IMG/VR virus record: IMGVR_UViG_3300024296_000003
Coordinates: 1 to 54,639 of that record
DNA: 54,639 nucleotides
Source of the DNA: a virus
Taxonomy: Duplodnaviria; Caudoviricetes
Reading direction: 5' to 3' (one strand)
Below, piece by piece: positions 563-51,025 of this stretch. The number at the start of each line of letters is the position of its first letter. Positions within the stretch are counted from its first letter, which is position 1. The position numbers and the translations under genes are program-made. The notes under the pieces were generated by a model that saw only the letters and a list, made by a program, of their open reading frames with translations, did no database searches and was not told the DNA's origin.

Positions 563-3500
563 TTATTTTTTAATTAAGGTAACACTGAATCCAAACGACT
601 CAGTAAACCCTTTCCTTTTGTTATATATTAGCTTTAAATCAAATGGATTAGTATTTAGTAATTTAGAACCAATAGAAGTGTTTACACTTAATCCTGCATT
701 AACCTTTTCTGCATTTGTTAGTTGAGCAGTAGAATAATCCAACGGTAATTTTTGCCTGGTGCTTTTTACATAAAACTCTACCGATGAGATCTTATACAAC
801 TGTAAAATGTTTTGTGTAATATATCTTTCAACATCATCATCTATAGAATCTATATCATTATAACTAAATTCAGGTTTAATGTACTTTTTAAATTGATCTC
901 TAATAGGTGTAAACAAATATTCAATTAACCTTTTTTGTATAAAGTTATAAAAAACAACAGAAGTATCATTTTCCTGAGTCATAAATGTTCCATCTATTAA
1001 TGAAGGCTGCCTAATAGCACCTTTATCAAATGGTGAATGTAAAAAAGTTTCTAATTTTATTTCTTGTGGTACTTTTAAATACTTAGAACCATAAAATGAC
1101 TTTCTTTCAGTCATTGCCTTTGTTCCTATAATAGATTCTATTTGTGACTTGTCAATACTTTTTCTAAAATAAGAAGGTTCCCAGTTAGATGAAAATAGAT
1201 AAAAATCTCTTTTTGCTATACCTACTTCATTAATAAGTGGATAAAGACTAAGATATGCGCCTTCTTTAGAAAGTTCTAATACTGTTGAAGGATCTTCCTC
1301 ATTAACTTTATGATAAAATAAATTCTTTATTTGTCCAAAATTTTCAACATCATTACTATTAAACTGGGTATTGCAATATCTACATAATTCTAATACTTTA
1401 AGTTTATAAATCTCATCATCAATAACACCACCAGTATATCCTGTTGGATTATCAAAATCTATATTTAAATAAGGGTCTCTAAATGAAAATAAATTTAATG
1501 ATGTTGGTTGGTAATAACCTGCATGTCTTCCTATTGGTGTTATTCTAGGTTTTGTTTGTAAAGATAAATCATATCCTATAATATCTGTAAGGTTAAATAC
1601 GGTTGGTTTTGCAGGATCTGGTAAAACACCAACATAAACAGATTTTAAAATATCAGCTTGAGCTCTTAATTCAATCATAAATGTCTGTAAGATATTTCCG
1701 TTTTTATCAACTACTCTATTACCATCTTTATCTATAGTTTCATATAGGACATCAGAAGATCCTTGATTAACATTTTTAAATAGTGTAGCAAAACCAACGT
1801 CTCTTAGTCTGGTAACATACGCGTTAAATCCACCATTTAATGTAAAATATTCTGCGGTAGATAAATCTGTTGAGGTTGGTGTTAATCCACCTGGTACAAA
1901 AGCTACACCATTTTTTGTTATTTCAGTAGCAAAGAATTGACTATCAGAAACTACTCTTATTATACCTCTACATTGATAAATATCCGTACCTATTACAAAT
2001 TGAAGTATATTAAATTGACCATCCGCACCTATAGTTATATCCCTTAAAAATCTAGGAGGGTTACCGTTTGCATCAGGTACTCCTTGTATTAAATAGGCAC
2101 CTGCTGTTATATTATATGATGTTGCTGCTAAACTAAGAGCTCCTTGTACAATTCCCTTTTCATAAAAAGGGCGCCCTGTTAATGGGTTGAATATCGATTC
2201 ACATTCTGTAGGTCCTGAAGTGTTTACTCTATAATCATTTTCTAAAGAGTATAATGAAGTTCTATCAATTTCCTGTTCTCCTTCATTTATACAATAGTTA
2301 TCAAGAGTTAAAAATACCATCATTACAACAGTTTTCCATTTATCATTTTTAACGAACTTAATTTGCGTTTCCGGTTTATCAGGTGCATTGGGTATTAACA
2401 TTACAGAAAATCTATAATCATTAAATCTTCCATCGTTAACATATTTTAAAGACCTTGCATTAAAATTAGGTCTATTTTCAGGGTTTGCTTTTGGTTTTGC
2501 AATAATTCTAACCCCTCTCAAAAAAGTTTCAGCAAAATTCTTTTCATCCCCTCCAGAGAATCTACCATACCTAAGCTGCCTATCTATGAGATTAATATTA
2601 CCACCTGTTGTAAACTTATCAACTATAAAGTAATCATTAAAATAATCTTTATCTACCTTCTGAAAAGTACCAGGTGTATACGCAGCTCCCGTTATAGGAT
2701 TTGCCTCTATTGTATCAGTTGGTGCAGTGTCAATATAACTCCAAGAACTTTTAATAGCATCATCATTAAAGTAATAAGGAAATTCACATAGATAATACCA
2801 TTCATGCGAGAACCCGAGTGGATCTTGGCCTACACTATATTTTGAAGGTGCAAAATTATTTTGACCAAATGCCTCGTTTACATTTAAGCTATATGGTAAA
2901 TTTCTGACATTCTTACCATCATCTATCCATGACCATTTATTAATGTATGGAATAACTCTTGATGCAACTGCTTGTTGCTTTATAAAATTTTCTTCTAATC
3001 TATCGTATTCTGATTTTATAATAGAATCAACAGTAGTATCAGGATCTGAATCTCTTAATAACCCTATCAATGTAGAAAAACCACCATTATCATAAAATTC
3101 TCTAATCTCTGGGTTTGTACTTATTCCTGTATATGTGTTTGTGGCTGGATCAACTGTATTATAATGAATCCTTTCATAATTTAATTCACCTTCTCTACTA
3201 TAAAGATTACTGTAAAAGTCATAATCAAAATCTCTTACTGGGAAAACTGAAAATCTACCAAAAGATGGCATATAATCAGAGTACAGTGCGACTTGATTAG
3301 ATCGGGTAACATTAATTTGATTATCATTTAATGTTATGATAACATATTCATCAATTCCATTATAACCTATTTGTTTACCTCTTTCATTTGTAATAGGTTC
3401 ATTTAAATAAGGTACCCAATCACCTATTTCAGCAAACCCGTTTTTAGATTGAACAAAATTACCTTTTTCAAATCTTTCTTGGTCACCGTTTGCAACTTTA

Positions 3501-5243: not shown

Positions 5244-8200
5244 TTACAGGAAGCCTCCACCGTCTACATCAGTTTCTTGGGCAAACCCTCGATTCACACC
5301 ACCACCTCTAGCAGATCCACCACCACCTCTAACAACTTGATTTACTCTAGTTGCCGTAACGGTTGGGCTTAACTTAGTTAATACTTTTTCCAAATCGTTT
5401 AAACCTTTAGTAACTGTTTTAGTTGGGAATACATCAATATTTAAATTATCAGATCTATATTTAGCAAATACCTCTATGTCGTATTGATAAACATCCTGGT
5501 TATTAGGGAATATATCAAAACCGACTTTCTTTGCATAGGTAAGGTTTACAGTTGCACCTGTACTATCACCTCCGATATTTCCTAGACCTCCAGCAGAACC
5601 ATCACCAGTACCAAAATAATCGGTCATCCTATATTGAAACACTAGTGGAATGTTAATTGAATTCTGTTGCCCAAATTGAATGATAGCCTCTGATTGTATT
5701 GAATCACCATTCATTTGTATACTTTGGTGTGCATCAGCAGACATAAATAAATAAGAACCTACTGATTGTTTACCTAGTGTATATTGATCAAATGTTTCAA
5801 ATGAATTTTTAGTATTTCTTTCATATCCATTTCCACTGTTTACTATATTAGGATCTACTGCATCAGATAGAGCATCTATTGCTACGATAGAAGGGCTAGC
5901 TATTAATGTTTGCCCAGAAGTCCATGTTTGACCTGCTAATGTTGATGTTGAGGCCATTTCTTGTAGCTTTATTGAATTTTCATTTAAGTATATTGACTGT
6001 TGCTTCCCATACGGTTGATCAGATTGCAGATTCATAAATTTAGATTGTCTAAACATAACATTAGCAGTACCATTACCACCTGTTGTACAGTCAGCTTGTG
6101 TAGAAGTTATAGGATCTCCTATATTACCTAGAGTGAAAGTATCTCCAGTAGCTCTTATGTATGCTTGTCTAAATGCATCCATACTTTGTACTATAGGATG
6201 ACTAGTATGTACCTCTAAAGTATTATCATCACCTAAAGGATAAGTCCCCGCTGTAGTCGGCTCTCCTGTAGTTACATCAAAACCACCACCCCATATAAAT
6301 TCAGTTTCTGAAACAATATTAGTATTAGTACTTCTACCATAAAAGTTTTCAGCAGTATCTAAATTAAATGTATAGTCACCATCTGGGTTAATGTAACTAT
6401 AGAAAGTTTCCTCAGATGATACATCATTAAATCTACTATTAATAAATTGGTTTTTATTTTGCGTAGATTGAAATGGTGCTAATGAAGTAGTTTGACCATA
6501 TTTCCAATCAGCATTAACAGTAGGATTGGTTAAAAGAATTGGAGTTAAATCATATTTTCGGACTGTATTATAATCTACATCTGATGATATATATGTAGCC
6601 CTACCATTACTCTGATTAGCTTGGCTATTATCTAACCATGAATATGTTGCAGGTAAAATAGTACTACCTCCAGTTACTTGAGCTACACTGTAGTTAGGAT
6701 CCTCTGATTGTTTAACCATTCTTTGTCTATTTCCTGCTATCCTAGAAACTAATCTTAAACCAGTCTGTTCTCGGTTTGATAAATTAATAAAGAATGTTTT
6801 AGATATTACAGCACCTCTTGGATCATCTAAGTTAGACACCTCCTGTGAATAAAATCCAGCAAATACTTTAGTTACAGCATTTCTCTTAATTCTTGTAACA
6901 TTACCTTGATCATCAATTAACTGACAAACCAATTCTCCTTGCGCATTAGAAAGTATTTCAGCAAATAAATCTAATTGATTTTGCATTTCTTGTAATTTAG
7001 TAAACAAATCAATTGGCGTTTGGTTTTCTGATAAAAAGCCTGATGCAATTACTGGTGATGAATGCGCATAATAAGTTTCATTCGCTGTAAAAGAACTGCT
7101 TAAATGTTGTTGTATACCTAATTCATTTAAATCTTCTTCTAATGAAACTTTAGCTAAGTCTTGTTGATTTTGATTAATTATTGCCTCTACTGCATTATCA
7201 GAACTCAGATCAGCTGGGAAAGGTATAACAACAGATCTTGACCAATCACTCTCTAGTGGATTGGTTGGCCAACCTGCCTCAGATACTGATTTTACTTGGA
7301 CTTCTACCTGTTCACCTTTTCTAATAGGTATATCTAATTGATTAATGTTTACGGCATCGGCGTTATCCGCATCTATTTCAACCCATTCATAAACCCCTGT
7401 GATAGAATTTTTAATCCTAGGTCTTAATGTACTGTCTATAATGTTATAATTTGAAAATGCACCTTGACTAACACCTGACCCATCAATAAAATTAAATTGA
7501 TCTACAGGGTTAGCTGCACCATCACTAGATAAATAACGATACCTAGTCTTAAACTTTACAATAGATTGAACTCCAGTTGCTGGTGTAGACTTTTCTTCTG
7601 GCATTGACCAAAATCCTCTTGCCCTATATTTAGGTGAAATAGATGATACTGAATTATCTTTTGCTTTAGCATCAATTTCTTTTACAACCGATGAATATAA
7701 TTGTCCTTGTGAAGACCTTTCTGTAATAAGACCTTGTAAAGCATTTACATCAGCATCTCTTTCAACTTCAGTTGAATAATTAGTAGTTTGTATTTTTGTC
7801 CTGCTTTGAGAAATTGCACCATCTAATTCTTTAAGTGTAGCTTCTATAGTATTTTTTTGATTATTTAAATCTGTTAATTCCACAATAGCCGGAGCATCAC
7901 TTACTTGGCCATTAATTAACTTAACCGCAAAATCCCCATCATTTAAGACTGGTGCATTAGGCTTAACACCTTCCCTCGTAGTAGGCATTCTATCATCTGC
8001 AAAGGAAAGTAACATAGCACCAAAATCAATAGCGCTTTGTTGATAATATTCGGCTAAGGTTTGCTCAACACCACCTTCATTAACAGTAGTTAATGTGTTA
8101 GTGTAGAACGCACTACCTGGCGACCAATTCACAGAAGGTATTTTTGAATCTGGGTCAATAGGTTTTACAAAAGTTACACATCTTTCATTAAACCCAACAG

Positions 8201-38996: not shown

Positions 38997-39331
38997 AAAA
39001 GTTGTATACCTATTAGGCTACATGCAAGTGCTAATGATACTATTGTTTTTGTAGTGATCCCTTCTCCTAATAACCACCAAGTTAAAAAAGCAAATGAAAT
39101 AATACCAGTACCAAAACCAATAAACCTACCTGGCCATAACAACCCATCATAATATTCTACTATGAATTTTGTTCCGTAAATTAATATGTAACTAATACTA
39201 GTTCCCATAATTAAAGATACTGCAAAAGGATTCTTTTTAAACCATGGCCAAACAAATTGACCATTGGTTTGTACCCATATTAAAGTTTGCCCTAAAAAGA
39301 ATAATAAAAAAGCTGCTATTAATTTATTCAT
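38987..39331 (-). CDS. Small 4-TM membrane protein (DMT/SMR-like topology)
   Basis: Four hydrophobic segments in 114 aa; LLGEGIT. Confidence 0.5.
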
Positions 39332-39599
39332 CTATGTAATATTTATATCCTTGTCTTATTAAATGATCCATGTGACTCTGCATATCCTTTGCAGTAATCC
39401 ATACGGAATTTTCTCTTTCGACTTTACCGTCTTGTCTTTTGTCATATGCTTTATTAAGAAACCATTTTTCTCTTTTTGATTCCCACCAAAACCAAATCTT
39501 TTGCCATGATCTAGGTTTTTTCATATAGACTTTATTACCTTCATTCATATGATTTATGAACTCTTCATAGGTAATGTCTTTTTTATTTTTCGTTGACAT
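39324..39599 (-). CDS. Hypothetical protein, 91 aa
   Basis: ORF track; overlaps neighbours. Confidence 0.5.
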   Translation of the reverse strand: MSTKNKKDITYEEFINHMNEGNKVYMKKPRSWQKIWFWWESKREKWFLNKAYDKRQDGKVERENSVWITAKDMQSHMDHLIRQGYKYYIDE

Positions 39600-39765
39600 T
39601 TTTAATTTGAAGCTTTTTTAATTTTTCATCTACTCTTCTTTTCTTTTCTGCTATATCATTAGACCTTTCTAATTGAGTAGATATTTTTTGTAATACTTCA
39701 ACTAATGCAGGTACATCTTGTTCAAAGAATCTTCTTCCTGCAGATGTTCTATAAAAATCTTTCAT
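39583..39765 (-). CDS. Hypothetical protein, ~60 aa (start revised to MKDFYRTS)
   Basis: The upstream start at 39831 would overlap the promoter-like motif at 39781-39809. Confidence 0.5.
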   Translation of the reverse strand: MKDFYRTSAGRRFFEQDVPALVEVLQKISTQLERSNDIAEKKRRVDEKLKKLQIKNVNEK

Positions 39766-39846
39766 AAGGAGTTGTTTATTTTTATATGTTATTTTATGAG
39801 TTAGTTTCATGAATATATAATCAAATAACAAAAATAATAAATTATA

Positions 39847-40344
39847 ATGGCAAAAGTACCTTTATTTGAAGATTTTATTCCTGTAGGTTTTGCTCCTAAT
39901 AGTGCTGCCCAGTTTTCACTAGGTGGTGGTTATAAGGAAACAGGATATAACATGGACGCAATTGTTGGACCAGTTGAAGAATTAGGAAACCATGTAGCTG
40001 AACAGGCTAATAGCTATGAGAGCAATGATAACCCAGATCATACTGCAAAATCATATGTAAAAGAAGCTAAGAAACATATTAATGATAAAATAGATGAGGC
40101 ATGTGAAAGCTATTCAATGTCAGAATCTACCCTTAATGAAGGAACTGATATTAGTTCATGGAATCAAGCAGGAATTAAAGGCGATGCAAATGCACAGATA
40201 ACTACCTTTGTTGGACCTAGAGATGTTGAGTCTTTTGGTTTAGGTAGAAAATGTATGCAAATAAACATTGGTAGAAACTATGTTCAGTTAAACCCGGCTG
40301 ATATTGTAGAGCTAAAAGAACTTCTTAAAAACTATAAAGTATAA
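39847..40344 (+). CDS. Probable internal head protein, 165 aa
   Basis: N-terminus MAKVPLFEDF; internal TLNE; late-type motif upstream. Confidence 0.5.
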   Translation: MAKVPLFEDFIPVGFAPNSAAQFSLGGGYKETGYNMDAIVGPVEELGNHVAEQANSYESNDNPDHTAKSYVKEAKKHINDKIDEACESYSMSESTLNEGTDISSWNQAGIKGDANAQITTFVGPRDVESFGLGRKCMQINIGRNYVQLNPADIVELKELLKNYKV

Positions 40345-40589
40345 TGATACCTAAATTTAAAAATTATTTAAATGAAGCTTCTGATTATGAATTTAATCCT
40401 AATGAAGCAGCGAGAAGATTAAAGGATAGAGAAAAGGAAAACATCCAAAGATATAGAGCTGCTCAAGAGCGAGGAGATAATTATGCTATTGAATTATATG
40501 AACTAAAAATCAAAATGGATAAAATAGATCTAGAAGGATTAAAGGTACAAACTGCTATTCATCAGCTAAAACAAAAAAATGGAAAGTAA
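40344..40589 (+). CDS. Probable internal head protein, 81 aa
   Basis: N-terminus MIPKFKNYLNE resembles T4 capsid-targeting sequence. Confidence 0.55.
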   Translation: MIPKFKNYLNEASDYEFNPNEAARRLKDREKENIQRYRAAQERGDNYAIELYELKIKMDKIDLEGLKVQTAIHQLKQKNGK

Positions 40590-40909
40590 TGATAGGTAAG
40601 TTTGATGAATTCTTAAATGAAAAAAACTTTATGGTACCAACAGCTGATACTGCTATTAAGTATAGGCTATCACATATGCCAATGTCAGGGTACATTGTAG
40701 CAATGCCATCAAGCGGTAAAGAATTAGATAAAGAAATAGAATCAGGATTTTCTAAAACTGCAATTGCTAAAGATATAGAAGATATGTTAAATGATCAATT
40801 AAAAAAGTATAGACAATTTATTAGAGTAAGTGTTGATAATACTTATAAAGGAGCAGGTTATGCATTTACGATTGACATGGATGAATTACTAAAAACATTA
40901 AACAGATAA
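40589..40909 (+). CDS. Probable internal head protein, 106 aa
   Basis: N-terminus MIGKFDEFLNE resembles T4 capsid-targeting sequence. Confidence 0.55.
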   Translation: MIGKFDEFLNEKNFMVPTADTAIKYRLSHMPMSGYIVAMPSSGKELDKEIESGFSKTAIAKDIEDMLNDQLKKYRQFIRVSVDNTYKGAGYAFTIDMDELLKTLNR

Positions 40910-41337
40910 TGGAAAATAACCAAGAAAGAGAAGACTTAAGCAAAATCCGCCATTATAAAGGCACGGTAAAAGATTTTAAAAATTACTGGGATGAAATGGC
41001 TGGAATGGAAACGAATGCATTTGGTACACCAGAATATCAAGGATTTAATGATGTTCATCCAACTCGTGGTGAAGGTGATAGTGAACATTGGAAAACTTCA
41101 AATGTAACTGAAGGTAGAAAAACTACCGATGGGTTAGGTAAGGAAGGAATGGAAATGTATCATGATATATCTATGATAACTGGTTTTGATGATGGAGATA
41201 CTGTTAGAGGTTATGGCCAAATAGAACCTGCCATGAAAGATCATAAACTATTTAAAAAGCTCACACCTAGAGAAGTAAGAATTTTAAGGAATGCATTAAA
41301 TAATGTAATGAGAATAAGAATCAGAATGGAAAGATAA
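40909..41337 (+). CDS. Hypothetical protein of plus-strand late cassette, 142 aa
   Basis: TAATG coupling with upstream gene; internal VKDFKNYWDE and NVTE. Confidence 0.5.
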   Translation: MENNQEREDLSKIRHYKGTVKDFKNYWDEMAGMETNAFGTPEYQGFNDVHPTRGEGDSEHWKTSNVTEGRKTTDGLGKEGMEMYHDISMITGFDDGDTVRGYGQIEPAMKDHKLFKKLTPREVRILRNALNNVMRIRIRMER

Positions 41338-41341
41338 TTTC

Positions 41342-41914
41342 CTACTTAAACAGTTCTTCTAAATTATTATCTTTAATAACCTTTTTTAGCATAGGTACAT
41401 ATCGCTCAGCCTCTGCATAACTTGCCCCTAAATATTGAAAGTATTCATCTTCAGTATTTAACTGGCTTAAATACCTACATTGATAAAAAGCGTAGTCATA
41501 CACCGATTCTCTCCAATGATTATAATAAGCATGATTTCTTGAGGTACCTTCTGCCGTTGTAATTCTACGCCTTGCCTGCTTCATACCAAAGAGATTATGA
41601 TTTTCTAAAAAAATATCACTTTTCCAATATCCTGTCTCTAGGATAGATTGTGCCATTACAATATAAGGAAATTTTACCCTTAGGTCTTTTAGCATTCCTA
41701 CTAACTTTTCCTGATTAAATGTATCTATTTCATTAATAAATACTACTGTCTCGGCTTCTTTAAAATCGCTTATGATAACTTCCTTTGCAGTTCCTCTACC
41801 TATAATAAAACCTATTATTGCAATAAACAATAAAATTGATAAAAGATAAAGTACCCAGTTTTGGATACATACTCTACTGTACATTAATTTTTCTCTATCG
41901 TATTTAAAAAGCAT
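41342..41914 (-). CDS. GH73 glucosaminidase-family peptidoglycan hydrolase with N-terminal TM helix (candidate endolysin)
   Basis: AQSILETG, HNLFGMK, AYYNHWRESVYDY, YAEAERY; TM WVLYLLSILLFIAIIGFIIG. Confidence 0.8.
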   Translation of the reverse strand: MLFKYDREKLMYSRVCIQNWVLYLLSILLFIAIIGFIIGRGTAKEVIISDFKEAETVVFINEIDTFNQEKLVGMLKDLRVKFPYIVMAQSILETGYWKSDIFLENHNLFGMKQARRRITTAEGTSRNHAYYNHWRESVYDYAFYQCRYLSQLNTEDEYFQYLGASYAEAERYVPMLKKVIKDNNLEELFK

Positions 41915-41917
41915 ATA

Positions 41918-42016
41918 CTATTTATAAGTTAAACAAAAAAGCATTAGAGTAAAATAACCTAATGCTATAATTAGAAATATATCTATTGATTGTAATTTAT
42001 TTAAAAACTTTTTCAT
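41918..42016 (-). CDS. 32-aa single-TM peptide
   Basis: Manual translation MKKFLNKLQSIDIFLIIALGYFTLMLFCLTYK; ATGA overlap with upstream gene; ends 3 nt before lysin start. Confidence 0.45.
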   Translation of the reverse strand: MKKFLNKLQSIDIFLIIALGYFTLMLFCLTYK

Positions 42017-47855: not shown

Positions 47856-48344
47856 TTATTCAGAGGTATTAATTATCCCTCCAATAATTTTAGTTTCTGC
47901 TAGGTGATCGAACTCTCCATAGGTAATAATCTTATAACCTGTTTCAATAGGTTCAAATCGTTGAACACAAAGACCTTTTAATTCTTCACCAAAAATATCT
48001 AATTTAGAATGTTCATTAATGAAAGGCCCACCGCTCGGATCTACCATACTAATCCATGGATTTGATTTTACAAAATTTTGATATTGTTTTCCAATAACAC
48101 TAGGTCCTACATATCGATCGTTTTCATCATACACAGATTCATGAATTGCTTCTTTAAAACTTTCAATGTGCATTGGATGACCACCTTTGGAACCTACATC
48201 TTTACAGTAATTCTGATATGCTAATTTATAATCATTAGAACTTCCAAACCTACAGTGTTCAAAAGAACCTTCCCATAGGACTGAACCATCTTCTTGTTTT
48301 GTAAATGTGTAGACATCTCCGTATCTGTTTGTATACTTTACCAT
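47856..48344 (-). CDS. Hypothetical protein, 162 aa
   Basis: ORF track; NRYGD and MVDPSGGPFI motifs. Confidence 0.55.
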   Translation of the reverse strand: MVKYTNRYGDVYTFTKQEDGSVLWEGSFEHCRFGSSNDYKLAYQNYCKDVGSKGGHPMHIESFKEAIHESVYDENDRYVGPSVIGKQYQNFVKSNPWISMVDPSGGPFINEHSKLDIFGEELKGLCVQRFEPIETGYKIITYGEFDHLAETKIIGGIINTSE

Positions 48345-48365
48345 ATTTTTGTATTTTACTACCGG

Positions 48366-48439
48366 TGAACCAGACAGGATTCGAACCTGTGACCGTCTGC
48401 TTAGAAGGCAGATGCTCTATCCAACTGAGCTACTGGTCC
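48366..48439 (-). tRNA. tRNA-Arg(UCU)
   Basis: GGACCAG/CTGGTTC acceptor; TAGCTCAGTTGGATAGAGC D arm; TCTGC-CTTCTAA-GCAGA; GGTTCGAATCC. Confidence 0.95.
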
Positions 48440-48446
48440 AAATGTT

Positions 48447-48674
48447 TTAATCTAATTCTCCGTTACTCCATGCTTCATAAATGATTGCCATAATACCTTC
48501 ATCGGTATCAGCTTCTTCCCAACCAGTAGATTCATTCCACATAAAGAATTCTGTACTCTTTGGATTTTCAGCAATTCTTACTGATAAGTTTTCTCCGTTT
48601 ACTTCAAGATCGTATTCATTAGTAGTTGCCCACCATACTTCATCTTTACTTTTTACTTCAATTGAATACTCCAT
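48447..48674 (-). CDS. Hypothetical acidic protein, 75 aa
   Basis: ORF track; between tRNAs. Confidence 0.5.
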   Translation of the reverse strand: MEYSIEVKSKDEVWWATTNEYDLEVNGENLSVRIAENPKSTEFFMWNESTGWEEADTDEGIMAIIYEAWSNGELD

Positions 48675-48676
48675 AT

Positions 48677-48946
48677 TTAAATAGCTTTAAGAGATTCATC
48701 ATTATGATGAATAGTAACATCATAGTACCTTTCACCGCACATTGCATTTTTATATTGTTCTGCCCAATCTGGTCTTATTGAATAACCATGATAGTTATAA
48801 CTTATAACTCGACCTTTTTCTTGTTTATCTCTAAATACTGGAAGTACTACTCCATTACGGTCAGTCTTTCCTTCTGGGTGAGGTACACATGCCATTGGTT
48901 TAATCCATGTAACTTTGTCTCCTACATTAAATTTGTAATCTGTCAT
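48677..48946 (-). CDS. Hypothetical protein, 89 aa (SH3-like KFNVGDKV start)
   Basis: ORF track. Confidence 0.5.
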   Translation of the reverse strand: MTDYKFNVGDKVTWIKPMACVPHPEGKTDRNGVVLPVFRDKQEKGRVISYNYHGYSIRPDWAEQYKNAMCGERYYDVTIHHNDESLKAI

Positions 48947-48967
48947 TTTTTAATTATTAAAGGTTAG

Positions 48968-49053
48968 TACCGCTGGACGGATTCGAACCGTCACTCACCG
49001 TTCGGCGAAAGGGATTTTAAGTCCCTCGTGTCTACCAGTTTCACCACAGCGGC
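48968..49053 (-). tRNA. tRNA-Leu(UAA)
   Basis: GCCGCTG/CAGCGGT acceptor; AGGGA-CTTAAAA-TCCCT; long variable arm; GGTTCGAATCC. Confidence 0.95.
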
Positions 49054-49060
49054 ATTCGTT

Positions 49061-49288
49061 TTACTTATCTTTGTTCTTTGGGTTTATTGTGTTCTTATTA
49101 AATATAATTGAAAATAGTACATTCAATCCGAAGGCTTGCCAAAATCCAATAGGATTAACAGCATCTATAGCCGGTACGAGGCATTCATTCCAAAGCCATT
49201 GAGTAGGCCATGCAAGTATCAATGCCAGAATCACAAAGCCCAATATAAGTAAAAAGGCGAATGCGAAGGGAGCGGTAAATTTATTCAT
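49061..49288 (-). CDS. Small membrane protein, 75 aa
   Basis: Two hydrophobic segments; WLWN...IGFWQAFGL. Confidence 0.55.
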   Translation of the reverse strand: MNKFTAPFAFAFLLILGFVILALILAWPTQWLWNECLVPAIDAVNPIGFWQAFGLNVLFSIIFNKNTINPKNKDK

Positions 49289-49356
49289 ATTTGTTATATT
49301 GTTTATAGTATAATTATAACAGGTATAAATGTATTCTGAAAGTGTTTAGTAAAAAA

Positions 49357-49542
49357 TTATTCGTCATCTTTAAACATACCATACAAAAACATGAGAACAA
49401 AAAAAGGCCATGCTATAAACCAGAATATTCTTTCAAAATTAGTGGCAGGTTCCATATCTAGTTTTTGGTAAAGTGTATCAAAACAAAACCCACACACTAC
49501 ACCAATAGTAATATATGCAATAATATAATTAGATACCATCAA
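49357..49542 (-). CDS. Small membrane protein, 61 aa
   Basis: Two TM segments; FIAWPFF. Confidence 0.5.
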   Translation of the reverse strand: MMVSNYIIAYITIGVVCGFCFDTLYQKLDMEPATNFERIFWFIAWPFFVLMFLYGMFKDDE

Positions 49543-49810
49543 CTAATTCTTTAATTTGTTTATCTTCTACATTACCAATCTTCTTACCTTTAATTTCACC
49601 ATTTTCAAAATAGATAAGAGTAGGAATACTTCTAATATTAAATTCTTTAGCCACATCTGACTCTTCATCTACATTACAAAAGATAACCTCTATATCTGGG
49701 TTTTCTGTAGCAAATTTTTCAATTCTAGGCTTCATCATTTTACAAGGCCCACACCATTGAGCCCAAAAATCAACAAGAACTCTAGGTCCGTTAAAATCTT
49801 CTTTTGTCAT
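49529..49810 (-). CDS. trxA: Thioredoxin
   Basis: VLVDFWAQWCGPCKMM; NVDE; IRSIPTL. Confidence 0.92.
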   Translation of the reverse strand: MTKEDFNGPRVLVDFWAQWCGPCKMMKPRIEKFATENPDIEVIFCNVDEESDVAKEFNIRSIPTLIYFENGEIKGKKIGNVEDKQIKELVDGI

Positions 49811-49830
49811 AATAAGTTTTGTTTCTGTAT

Positions 49831-50142
49831 TTATACAGGTGGATCAAGAGGTACATCTGCATATCTCTCGCTACCTAGAATTAAGTTAGTAGTGGTATCA
49901 GGAATTCCTGCACCAACATAAGGCTCAAGTTTTTGCATAGCTTCAGTAATATCTCTTGCTATGATATTGATTTGTTTTTCAATAGCATTATCTAAGTATA
50001 CACATTCATAGATGAGGTGGTCATTAATCTTAGATGTTTCTAATACTTCAATACTTAGTACTACTGATTGCCTTCCTAAACCTTTTAAGGATTTAAGTAA
50101 ATCTTTTTTGCTTCTATTATATTTCTTTTTAAGCTTTGACAT
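49831..50142 (-). CDS. Hypothetical protein (~103 aa; start revised to MSKLKKK)
   Basis: Revised start avoids overlap with upstream ORF. Confidence 0.5.
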   Translation of the reverse strand: MSKLKKKYNRSKKDLLKSLKGLGRQSVVLSIEVLETSKINDHLIYECVYLDNAIEKQINIIARDITEAMQKLEPYVGAGIPDTTTNLILGSERYADVPLDPPV

Positions 50143-50146
50143 AACT

Positions 50147-50323
50147 TTATTTTTTATCTTTAGGAAATCTTCCATAGTTACCCATACCGTCATAATCAGT
50201 TACATCATGATCTGGGTAATTTTCTTCTTTGCTTTTTCTTGAACTATAGAATATATTCCAGATAGTGAAGTACATGTACACGGCAAAAATTATACCGCCT
50301 ATAAGAAAAAACCCTAAGCTCAT
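50147..50323 (-). CDS. Small single-TM protein (~58 aa; start MSLGFFLIGG)
   Basis: ATGA overlap with upstream 56-aa ORF; C-terminal DYDGMGNYGRFP. Confidence 0.5.
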   Translation of the reverse strand: MSLGFFLIGGIIFAVYMYFTIWNIFYSSRKSKEENYPDHDVTDYDGMGNYGRFPKDKK

Positions 50324-50490
50324 TTTGTTCGTCTTTGGCGAATAGCAATCGCGAATAATAAAATAGTTCCTGGCCAATGAGCAGAGTATTGTGCTTCTGC
50401 TAAATTACCTGTCATTCCTAATCCTACTGAGTAAATTAAGCAAACGAATGCTAAGATAATAGGATACCACTGTTGAATAAAATCTTTCAT
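50320..50490 (-). CDS. Small membrane protein, 56 aa (not in ORF track)
   Basis: Manual translation MKDFIQQWYPIILAFVCLIYSVGLGMTGNLAEAQYSAHWPGTILLFAIAIRQRRTK; promoter-like motif 17 nt upstream. Confidence 0.6.
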   Translation of the reverse strand: MKDFIQQWYPIILAFVCLIYSVGLGMTGNLAEAQYSAHWPGTILLFAIAIRQRRTK

Positions 50491-50538
50491 AATAATTGTT
50501 GTTTATTATTATATTGTAAATATGTATTTAGTTTAAGG

Positions 50539-50615
50539 TCGGCCGGGAGAGACTTGAACTCTCATGTAACCAATTACTCTTTCTACAAGGTATAAGCTTG
50601 AGGAGATACCGGCCG
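50539..50615 (-). tRNA. Atypical tRNA-like RNA, anticodon-like loop UAU (Ile?), non-canonical arm order
   Basis: CGGCCGG/CCGGCCG acceptor + A + CC; perfect T arm GAGAG-TTCAAGT-CTCTC; CAAG-CTTATAC-CTTG lies 5' of D-like GTAA-TTGG-TTAC. Confidence 0.65.
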
Positions 50616-50624
50616 ATTGCCTGG

Positions 50625-50849
50625 TTAGGCTTCAGCGGCAGTTACCAAGATAGAGGAATCTAACGAGGTAAATGATCCATCCCTATATTCACAGATAGTA
50701 GTATCACCCTTCTGCTTTTCCACCATCATAGTGGTAATTCCAGTTGGAGTAGAGATAGTAAACACGGAGCCAGGGAAGAGTTTCCAAAGCTCGTATCGGT
50801 TACCCTTAACGGGTTCTTTAATCATCCAGTCTTTAATGTTTCTTGACAT
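50625..50849 (-). CDS. Hypothetical protein, 74 aa
   Basis: ORF track; class A motif upstream. Confidence 0.5.
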   Translation of the reverse strand: MSRNIKDWMIKEPVKGNRYELWKLFPGSVFTISTPTGITTMMVEKQKGDTTICEYRDGSFTSLDSSILVTAAEA

Positions 50850-51025
50850 GGTGTAAAAATTAAAAGGTTAAAATAAAAGGTGTTTGTTATTGTAGTAATT
50901 ATAATAACTAAAAGTTTATTCTGAAAGTGTTTGTTAGAATAAAGTAGGGTTTTTTCTAGTTCTTAGAGGTTCGGCACATTTTCTAATGGCGGTCGCACAT
51001 TCGCACATAGCAGCACATAGTTCCC

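Follow-up and report, generated by a model that had tools for sequence, protein, structure and literature searches.

A family of phage genes for a predicted isoleucine tRNA with rewired inner arms

The order of arms in the tRNA cloverleaf is treated as universal outside animal mitochondria. In canonical bacterial and phage tRNA-Ile(UAU), the D stem closes the D loop and precedes the anticodon arm, and a variable region leads into the T arm. Class II tRNAs (Leu, Ser, Tyr) carry an additional long variable arm between the anticodon arm and the T arm, but keep a normal D arm. D-armless mitochondrial tRNAs, such as tRNA-Ser(AGY) and those of nematodes and mites, have lost the D loop together with the G18 G19 contact to the T loop and need adapted factors (PMC7609411). 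Allo-tRNAs with 8/4 or 9/3 acceptor/T branches were found by mining metagenomes, some of them in phages, and have UAU among their common anticodons; they change the lengths of the acceptor and T stems while the arm order is kept (PMC7609411, PMC5389517). In circularly permuted and split tRNA genes (Cyanidioschyzon merolae, Nanoarchaeum), the 3' half precedes the 5' half or lies elsewhere, and RNA processing restores a canonical tRNA (PMC3978253, PMC3728597). Finally, the tRNA-like structures of plant viral RNAs and the tRNA-like domain of tmRNA reach an L-shaped mimic with a non-cloverleaf connectivity and are aminoacylated, but they are parts of larger RNAs and have no working anticodon arm for decoding.

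Here, we analysed a tRNA-like element in an uncultured virus (Duplodnaviria; Caudoviricetes; IMG/VR record IMGVR_UViG_3300024296_000003) whose inner arms are joined in a different order. The whole stretch of 54,639 nucleotides is referred to as the window; it has a G+C content of 32%, is estimated to be 21% complete and is found in seawater metagenomes. An earlier note, made from the sequence alone, had described the element as a tRNA-like gene with rearranged arm order and a UAU anticodon, and had proposed either a topologically novel, TilS-independent tRNA-Ile or a decoy against anticodon nucleases. In literature searches, from which most subscription journals were absent so that a prior description is not excluded, we found no account of this architecture. 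A 2020 review of non-canonical tRNAs (PMC7609411) does not mention phages in its main text, and a 2024 abstract states that all known bacterial tRNAs are canonical.

A tRNA-like element outside the calls of standard gene finders

The observation made in the earlier note is confirmed. Read on the minus strand, the element shows a 7-bp acceptor stem (7 of 7 pairs), U8 A9, a 4-bp stem with the 7-nt loop CUUAUAC, the AAUUGGUUA stretch after it, a 5-bp T stem (GAGAG/CUCUC) with the loop UUCAAGU, and a CUC before the anticodon arm that is complementary to a GAG after it (Table 1). It lies in a 134-nt gap between two small ORFs on the same strand. The region also holds canonical tRNA-Leu(UAA), tRNA-Arg(UCU) and tRNA-Gln(UUG), all on the minus strand.

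Table 1. Features of the element and its surroundings in the window (RNA position n = 50616 - n)
Coordinates	Strand	Feature	Observations
50539..50615	-	Whole noncanonical tRNA-Ile(UAU) gene (function inferred)	77 nt from position 1 (50615) to discriminator A (50539); 101.2 bits, E 3.5e-24 with covariance model R1
50609..50615	-	Acceptor stem, 5' strand (positions 1-7)	Pairs with 50540-50546; all 7 pairs change on both sides among 131 relatives; 95.4% of cells paired
50606..50608	-	Linker U8, A9, U10	Invariant in 131 of 131; U10 faces the invariant U40
50603..50605	-	D-like stem, 5' strand (C11 U12 C13)	Pairs with G39 A38 G37 and so encloses the anticodon arm; 100% paired; pair 12-38 is UA 70, CG 60, UG 1; pair 11-39 is CG 129, AU 2
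50601..50602	-	C14 and U15	C14 invariant, U15 in at least 90%; inferred roles: C14 plays position 26, U15 faces U31 as a fifth, U-U layer of the anticodon stem
50586..50600	-	Anticodon arm: 4-bp stem (16-19 with 27-30), 7-nt loop C U UAU A C	Anticodon UAU at 50594-50592; 4 of 4 pairs change on both sides; 98.7% paired; U33 and A37 of the loop invariant; position 34 is U (111) or G (20) among the 131
50580..50585	-	Linker U31 A32 G33 A34 A35 A36	GAAA invariant, also in the 26 distinct sequences of a scan that did not fix it; inferred role: fills the groove of the D-like stem in place of variable-loop bases
50577..50579	-	D-like stem, 3' strand (G37 A38 G39)	As for the 5' strand
50567..50576	-	U40 and D-loop equivalent A41 A42 U43 U44 G45 G46 U47 U48 A49	A41 to A49 match A14, R15, 16, 17, G18, G19, 20, 20a and A21; A41, G45, G46, U47 invariant; 42 is A or G; 43, 44, 48 vary freely; 49 is A 119, G 12
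50564..50566	-	C50 A51 U52	U52 is the partner of A42 in an R15-Y48-like tertiary pair; 42-52 is AU 96, GC 25, GG 7, AC 2, GU 1
50547..50563	-	T arm: 5-bp stem, loop UUCAAGU (T54, psi55, C56, R57, A58 equivalents)	4 of 5 pairs change on both sides; 97.3% paired; loop positions 59, 60, 62 invariant or nearly so
50540..50546	-	Acceptor stem, 3' strand (positions 70-76)	As for the 5' strand
50537..50539	-	Discriminator A (50539), then CC	CCA not fully encoded, so the final A would have to be added
50625..50849	-	Upstream 74-aa ORF	Ends 9 nt before the tRNA; no PHROG or Pfam match; synteny anchor
50320..50490	-	56-aa ORF on the other side of the gap	
49529..49810		ORF with thioredoxin match	The only family found in PHROG and Pfam searches of the small flanking ORFs
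48967..49053	-	Canonical tRNA-Leu(UAA)	Part of the conserved trio Ile(UAU), Leu(UAA), Arg(UCU)
48364..48439	-	Canonical tRNA-Arg(UCU)	Part of the same trio

We next asked whether standard tools recognize the element, for which the earlier note had predicted a low score or an odd call. ARAGORN and Rfam at gathering threshold each called three tRNAs in the window and none at the element, and the Rfam tRNA model (RF00005) reached 28.6 bits against a cut-off of 29. ARAGORN in mitochondrial mode found nothing at default settings, and at lowered thresholds, in mitochondrial mode and with introns allowed it gave no call on the element, the only outputs being forced intron-containing folds with other boundaries; tRNAscan-SE was not run. 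Among other Rfam families, only two chance-level matches were obtained (E 3.5 and 8.2). In contrast, a covariance model built from relatives (R1) separated the element clearly from the canonical tRNAs of the window, which scored at most 20.2 bits. A structure descriptor returned 193 distinct hits in 4.4 Mb of fetched loci and none in the same sequences reversed.

To place the element among known phages, the 600-nt region was compared with the DNA of cultured phages, which gave no match. The DNA ligase of the window is at most 32% identical to proteins of cultured phages, so the window's own phage has no close cultured relative. A promoter and terminator scan of positions 48300-51000 was uninformative, with 10 promoter-like sites against 11.3 expected and 0 terminators.

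Conservation and covariation across the phage family

To determine whether the arm order is conserved, we used a pattern that asks only for the anticodon loop, then a D-loop motif, then a T-loop motif. It hit 64 viral contigs, always with the same 46-nt span, and three further scans anchored on other parts hit at least 115, 120 and 119 contigs. Many of the 114 hits of a 15-base anticodon-arm pattern are family members as well. A profile search of all fetched loci found 265 copies, corresponding to 143 distinct 77-mers and to 198 distinct contexts among the 240 copies with 100 nt of flank on each side. Nearly all are 77 nt long, and the anticodons are UAU (224), GAU (40) and CAU (1). The counts come from related phages and from patterns that fix some positions; they are therefore inflated and not independent events. 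The discriminator is A in all copies, the next base is C in 159 of 159 distinct 80-mers, and full CCA is encoded in 19 of 159. ARAGORN overlaps 7 of 242 family copies, with other boundaries.

The structural analysis was based on 131 distinct sequences, all 77 nt without gaps; fourteen rows were left out, namely copies with a D loop one base shorter, a few longer or more divergent forms, and one Arg-type copy. The model comprises the acceptor stem, the 3-bp stem 11-13/37-39 enclosing the anticodon arm, the anticodon stem, the T stem and the tertiary pair 42-52. In this model 97.1% of cells are paired, compared to 71.1% in shuffles (0 of 500 reach it) and 38-47% when partners are slid, and 18 of 20 pairs change on both sides. 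The shuffle control ignores relatedness, and R-scape was not applied. Pair 6-67 is mismatched in 29 of 131 sequences and pair 50-64 in 18 of 131. RNAalifold predicted the same consensus independently, and the 15 highest corrected mutual-information values of all column pairs all belong to pairs of the model, with 42-52 ranking 12th. The CUC/GAG stem, whose covariation the earlier note had named as a test of its proposal, covaries; it was complete in every one of the 131 sequences and also, with 3 of 3 pairs, in 133 of 133 sequences found with a motif that left positions 11-13 and 38-39 free. The only stem after A9 encloses the anticodon arm, the D-loop sequence follows it, and no D arm stands between position 9 and the anticodon arm. 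The anticodon loop is canonical (C32, U33, A37), but its stem has 4 Watson-Crick pairs plus a U15-U31 juxtaposition, which leaves the match to the regular 5-bp anticodon arm undecided.

One detail of the earlier note is not upheld. The hairpin GUAA-UUGG-UUAC (39-42/47-50), which also appears in the single-sequence MFE fold (z = -2.48; 4 of 200 shuffles fold as well), shows no change on both sides in any pair, and its third pair (41-48) is broken in 42 of 131 relatives. The segment varies like a true D loop instead, and position 42 covaries with position 52, the base just before the T stem, as R15 does with Y48 in canonical tRNAs. As in class II tRNAs, an extra element lies between the anticodon arm and the T arm, but the element is not a class II tRNA, as it has neither a supported variable arm nor a D arm. 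It is also not a tRNA of the D-armless mitochondrial type, although both lack a D arm between the acceptor stem and the anticodon arm and both give standard finders trouble: the family keeps a full, relocated D-loop sequence with invariant G45 G46 and a standard T loop, is of normal length and occurs in phages of bacteria. Different from allo-tRNAs, it has the standard 7/5 branch and changes the arm order. It is unrelated in sequence to plant viral tRNA-like structures and tmRNA, a comparison that was not tested here, and no Rfam family matched it.

The conservation also bears on two alternative explanations. A decaying tRNA pseudogene, or a DNA-level element such as an attachment site derived from a tRNA gene, might be considered because ARAGORN and Rfam do not call the element and because phages often carry tRNA fragments at attachment sites. 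However, a pseudogene or DNA site would not keep RNA base pairing, whereas compensatory changes occur in every stem of distinct sequences of nearly constant length, in phages of Streptomyces and Bacteroides and in marine phages; we regard this explanation as very unlikely. Similarly, all sequence pieces of a cloverleaf are present once each, only in another order, so the transcript might be cut and rejoined into a canonical cloverleaf as in circularly permuted or split tRNA genes. Here, however, the acceptor strands are already in normal order and pair directly, the canonical order would require at least two cuts and two ligations inside the core, no bulge-helix-bulge or intron-like motif is conserved, and most copies have no insertion. 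The covariation fits the genomic order directly, including the stem that encloses the anticodon arm, and the permutation is internal and appears to be kept in the mature fold. No such pathway is known in bacteria, and this possibility is likewise very unlikely.

Genomic setting and a sister family with Arg anticodons

We then examined the locus in relatives of the window. Nine viral loci encode a relative of the upstream 74-aa ORF. In three of them (69-71% protein identity) the same element follows, differing by one base that turns a G-C pair of the acceptor stem into G-U, while in the other six (63-65%) a canonical tRNA-Ile(UAU) follows. Five of the nine loci (L002, L003, L005, L008 and L010, our labels for fetched loci) were scanned for tRNAs, and in all five tRNA-Leu(UAA) and tRNA-Arg(UCU) lie downstream in the same order as in the window. 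The element thus occupies the slot of a tRNA-Ile(UAU). The canonical tRNA in this slot (relatives L005-L010) shares with it the anticodon loop CUUAUAC, the T loop UUCAAGU, a D-loop sequence of the same type, discriminator A, about the same length and the same strand; model R1 gives 98-101 bits to the rearranged form and 20.5 bits to the canonical one. One family member (locus L139) has an acceptor stem and T arm almost identical to that canonical tRNA, which suggests descent from it. Against L003 the element is 76 of 77 identical, while the upstream ORF is 75% identical, the 3' spacer is 36 of 48 and the downstream gene is unrelated. Against L002 the downstream spacer and gene are as conserved as the element (98%), so that this comparison says nothing about selection.

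Across the family, all 767 canonical tRNAs within 1 kb of a copy are on the same strand, and the nearest tRNA is within 20 nt for 109 of 219 copies. In 43 distinct arrays of at least 8 canonical tRNAs, a canonical tRNA with the same anticodon is present in only 2. Arrays with a GAU-type copy hold a canonical UAU in 12 of 19 and a canonical GAU in 0 of 19; for UAU-type copies the figures are 1 of 15 and 7 of 15 (Fisher p about 0.001 each). This was judged on loci of at most about 14 kb, not on whole genomes. Eight of the nine arrays that carry both types have no canonical tRNA-Ile in the fetched part, one 96%-complete 96.5-kb record being an example. A 100%-complete 164-kb phage record has only tRNA-Leu(UAA), tRNA-Arg(UCU) and this element. 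In the window, AUA accounts for 369 of 946 Ile codons (39%), AGA for 73% of Arg, UUA for 60% of Leu and CAA for 79% of Gln codons, which match the anticodons carried; the other three tRNAs also match the preferred A-ending codons.

A structure descriptor that ignores the anticodon additionally returned Arg-type sequences with the same layout in the same loci, and an arm-order pattern for the ACG loop then hit at least 119 viral contigs. Of 91 distinct complete sequences, 85 have full acceptor stems, 86 full T stems and 89 full anticodon stems. The D-like stem is complete in 44, compared to a mean of 12 and a maximum of 20 in 1000 shuffles, and has many pair types. ARAGORN overlaps 1 of 118 copies, all 624 neighbouring tRNAs are on the same strand, and a canonical tRNA-Arg(ACG) is co-present in 1 of 79 arrays. 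With a core motif that fixes neither the anticodon nor the base after GG, the 133 distinct tRNA-like hits carry UAU (86), GAU (12), CAU (2), ACG (22), UCU (10) and CCU (1), and nothing else. The base after GG is U in 99 of 100 Ile-type and A in 33 of 33 Arg-type sequences, and the discriminator is A in 100 of 100 Ile-type sequences but varies in the Arg type. A20 is the main ArgRS determinant in E. coli, a point that was not tested here, and the switch argues that the relocated D loop is read by synthetases as a D loop. As UAU and UCU differ by one base and all seven anticodons form a single-step network, a single origin followed by identity switches is plausible, but this is an inference.

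The bacterial tRNA-Ile identity set, as described for E. coli, comprises an Ile anticodon (G/L/U34, A35, U36), A37, A38 or a near equivalent, and discriminator A73. The element fits it with UAU, A37 and A73; position 38 is C in the window (C 98, A 24, U 9 in the family), and the core pairs reported for E. coli were not mapped with certainty.

The family occurs in 38 records of cultured Streptomyces phages and in the crAss-like Bacteroides phage Kehishuvirus 'tikkala', and in none of these 39 records is a feature annotated under the match. The family is therefore present in cultured phages of harmless laboratory hosts and is directly testable. In 'tikkala' the copy fills the 90-nt unannotated gap between tRNA-Trp and tRNA-Met in a 23-tRNA array that has a canonical UAU but no GAU tRNA-Ile. 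In Streptomyces phage Mildred21 it lies at record positions 73703-73779, between gp170 and gp169, with a tRNA nucleotidyltransferase gene and an FtsK-like gene on either side, and scores 90 bits with R1, and the record has a canonical tRNA-Ile(UAU) nearby. A scan of bacterial and archaeal genomes with a 14-base pattern gave mostly chance hits; among at least 120 loci, 12 full-length members lie in 11, all on MAG contigs, and whether any of these is chromosomal was not established. The only signal from RNA libraries came from two short contigs (two runs, two studies) among four metatranscriptome runs. They hold 64 nt of the core with one mismatch and have other flanks, and hence stem from relatives; DNA carry-over is not excluded. 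The stretch from 50623 onwards has no cover in any run, and these data show neither expression nor its absence.

A predicted AUA-reading tRNA-Ile with a permuted core

Taken together, we consider it likely, with high confidence, that the element is a working phage tRNA-Ile that reads AUA and is built on a non-cloverleaf connectivity. The first reading of the earlier note, a topologically novel tRNA-Ile, is supported. Neither of the outcomes that would have spoken against it was observed, since no standard cloverleaf fits with a good score and the arm order is conserved in 143 distinct relatives. UAU anticodons, which the note had called rare, are common in phage tRNA arrays, so TilS independence is not special to this gene. 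Our analysis directly establishes the sequence, the family, the pairings by covariation, the genomic setting and the complementarity with canonical tRNAs, whereas transcription with the neighbouring genes, processing by RNase P and a 3' nuclease, completion of CCA, charging by the host IleRS, use on the ribosome and the three-dimensional arrangement are inferred. There are no data on transcription, end processing, CCA addition, charging or decoding, nor on whether EF-Tu, the ribosome and IleRS accept the altered core; the evidence for aminoacylation and decoding is only indirect and consists of identity marks, complementarity, synteny and codon use.

In the proposed fold, the chain would run from the acceptor stem through U8 and A9 into one strand of a 3-4 bp D-like stem and straight on into the anticodon arm, return through the GAAA linker into the other strand of the D-like stem, and only then form the D loop, which continues through C, A and Y48 into the T stem. 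Compared to the cloverleaf, the D loop and the anticodon arm have changed places, and the D loop takes the place of the variable loop. The stack from the anticodon loop to the core would have 10 layers (4 Watson-Crick pairs plus U-U, then C14 opposite A32, then 3 pairs plus U10-U40), the same count as in a canonical tRNA (5 + 1 + 4), with the total length unchanged. The D loop could therefore still reach the T loop (G18-psi55, G19-C56), U8 and Y48, and an L shape of normal size is plausible. For the anticodon arm to point away from the elbow, the D-like stem must sit turned end for end relative to the canonical D stem, so that its 5' strand would take the place of 22-25 and its 3' strand that of 10-13, which then leads naturally into A14. 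As U8 lies next to that end of the stem in canonical tRNA, the new joins look short. This model rests on reasoning from the known tRNA structure and not on a computed or solved structure, and in its details we consider it as likely as not.

Alternatively, the RNA may be made but not used for decoding, acting as a decoy or sponge for a host anticodon nuclease, a tRNA-modifying enzyme or IleRS, or as a processing or regulatory signal inside tRNA operons. The core differs from every tRNA that the translation machinery is known to accept, the anticodon loop is strongly conserved, as a nuclease decoy would need, and phage tRNAs as answers to tRNA-targeting defences are an established idea. However, a decoy should copy the host tRNA, cloverleaf included, and needs no aminoacylation marks, yet the discriminator is A in all Ile-type copies and the base after GG changes from U to A with the change to Arg anticodons. 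In addition, the copies fill the missing isoacceptor of their arrays instead of duplicating it, they replace a canonical tRNA-Ile(UAU) at a syntenic site, and the anticodon matches a codon frequently used in the window. The decoy idea raised in the earlier note has no support, and we regard this group of explanations as unlikely.

In a broader reading, which we consider somewhat more likely than not, phages of very different hosts (Streptomyces, Bacteroides, marine bacteria) use a previously unrecognized structural class of elongator tRNA with a permuted core, restricted to Ile and Arg, which is charged by host IleRS or ArgRS and works on host ribosomes. The rewiring may have spread because it escapes a host or phage factor that recognizes the canonical tRNA core, such as a tRNA-targeting defence nuclease. 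A natural, abundant tRNA class with another connectivity would show which features of the tRNA core the synthetases, EF-Tu, RNase P and the ribosome really need, and would give a natural scaffold for orthogonal tRNAs. It would also reveal a blind spot of tRNA finders, such that phage tRNA repertoires and codon-usage analyses are incomplete for Ile and Arg. Finally, it would raise the question of why only Ile and Arg tRNAs were rewired, perhaps in connection with tRNA-targeting defence.

Surroundings of the rearranged tRNA gene

We first considered the immediate surroundings of the rearranged tRNA gene in the window. Between the tRNA and the next ORF lies an A/T-rich spacer, which is conserved at the same place in L002 and L003, two viral loci that encode a relative of the upstream ORF. 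The spacer bears a weak promoter-like site (TTTACA, 17 nt, AATTAT); however, the number of promoter-like sites in the region is not above chance. An ORF on the same strand encodes a 93-aa thioredoxin (Pfam PF00085, E 1.4e-24). Its active-site stretch explains the depth spike observed at 49714-49814 in the metatranscriptome contigs, which come from many organisms. Further away, the stretch from 39000 to 42000, which was not examined, is the only one in which GC and AT skew change sign, and it holds a plus-strand ORF in an otherwise minus-strand window.

We also noted that the two Rfam searches did not agree on the element. The search of 50400-50750 in E-value mode did not list the tRNA family, whereas the genome search with RF00005 gave 28.6 bits at the same place. 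This is probably due to a filter difference between the two tools.

Coordinates of the features noted in the window and in the fetched loci
Sequence	Position	Strand	Feature
Window	50538	-	Base after the discriminator
Window	50492-50520	-	Conserved A/T-rich spacer with weak promoter-like site
Window	49529-49810	-	Thioredoxin gene
Window	39847-40344	+	ORF in the stretch of skew sign change
L403	around 6441-6517		Example of the arginine-type sister family
L029	218-309	-	Longer or more divergent relative, 92 nt
L115	4403-4510	-	Longer or more divergent relative, 108 nt
L237	5614-5695	+	Longer or more divergent relative, 82 nt
L400 (Streptomyces phage Mildred21)	1965-2577		tRNA nucleotidyltransferase gene (gp170) and rearranged tRNA-Ile(GAU)
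L390 (MAG contig)	2616-2690	-	Ile-type member with anticodon CAU

Arginine-type and divergent relatives

The rearranged layout is shared by a sister family that carries only arginine anticodons, mostly ACG but also UCU, CCU and UCG (loci L401-L518 of the fetched DNA). This family hit at least 119 viral contigs. It has A after GG and encodes CCA in 72 of 91 distinct sequences, and ARAGORN missed 117 of 118 copies. In addition, three longer or more divergent relatives were observed (L029, L115 and L237). Their structure was not worked out, but they carry an extra hairpin or insertion after the D-loop segment or inside the 5' part, and other linkers in place of GAAA.

3' end, stem mismatches and CAU anticodons

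In the Ile-type family, the base following the discriminator is C in 159 of 159 distinct 80-mers, although full CCA is encoded in only 19. This suggests a constraint on 3' processing or CCA repair. In Streptomyces phage Mildred21, the rearranged tRNA-Ile(GAU) starts 15 nt after the stop of a phage tRNA nucleotidyltransferase gene.

Within the family alignment of 131 sequences, U-U mismatches recur at two positions, namely the acceptor pair 6-67 (alignment pair 6-71; 25 of 131) and the T-stem pair 50-64 (alignment pair 54-68; 16 of 131), and are too frequent to be noise. Finally, rare members with the anticodon CAU occurred in the Ile-type scaffold, with U after GG and A as discriminator, on the MAG contig L390 and also among the hits of the core-motif search that did not fix the anticodon. 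These members would need lysidine to read AUA, so that TilS would have to accept the rearranged core.
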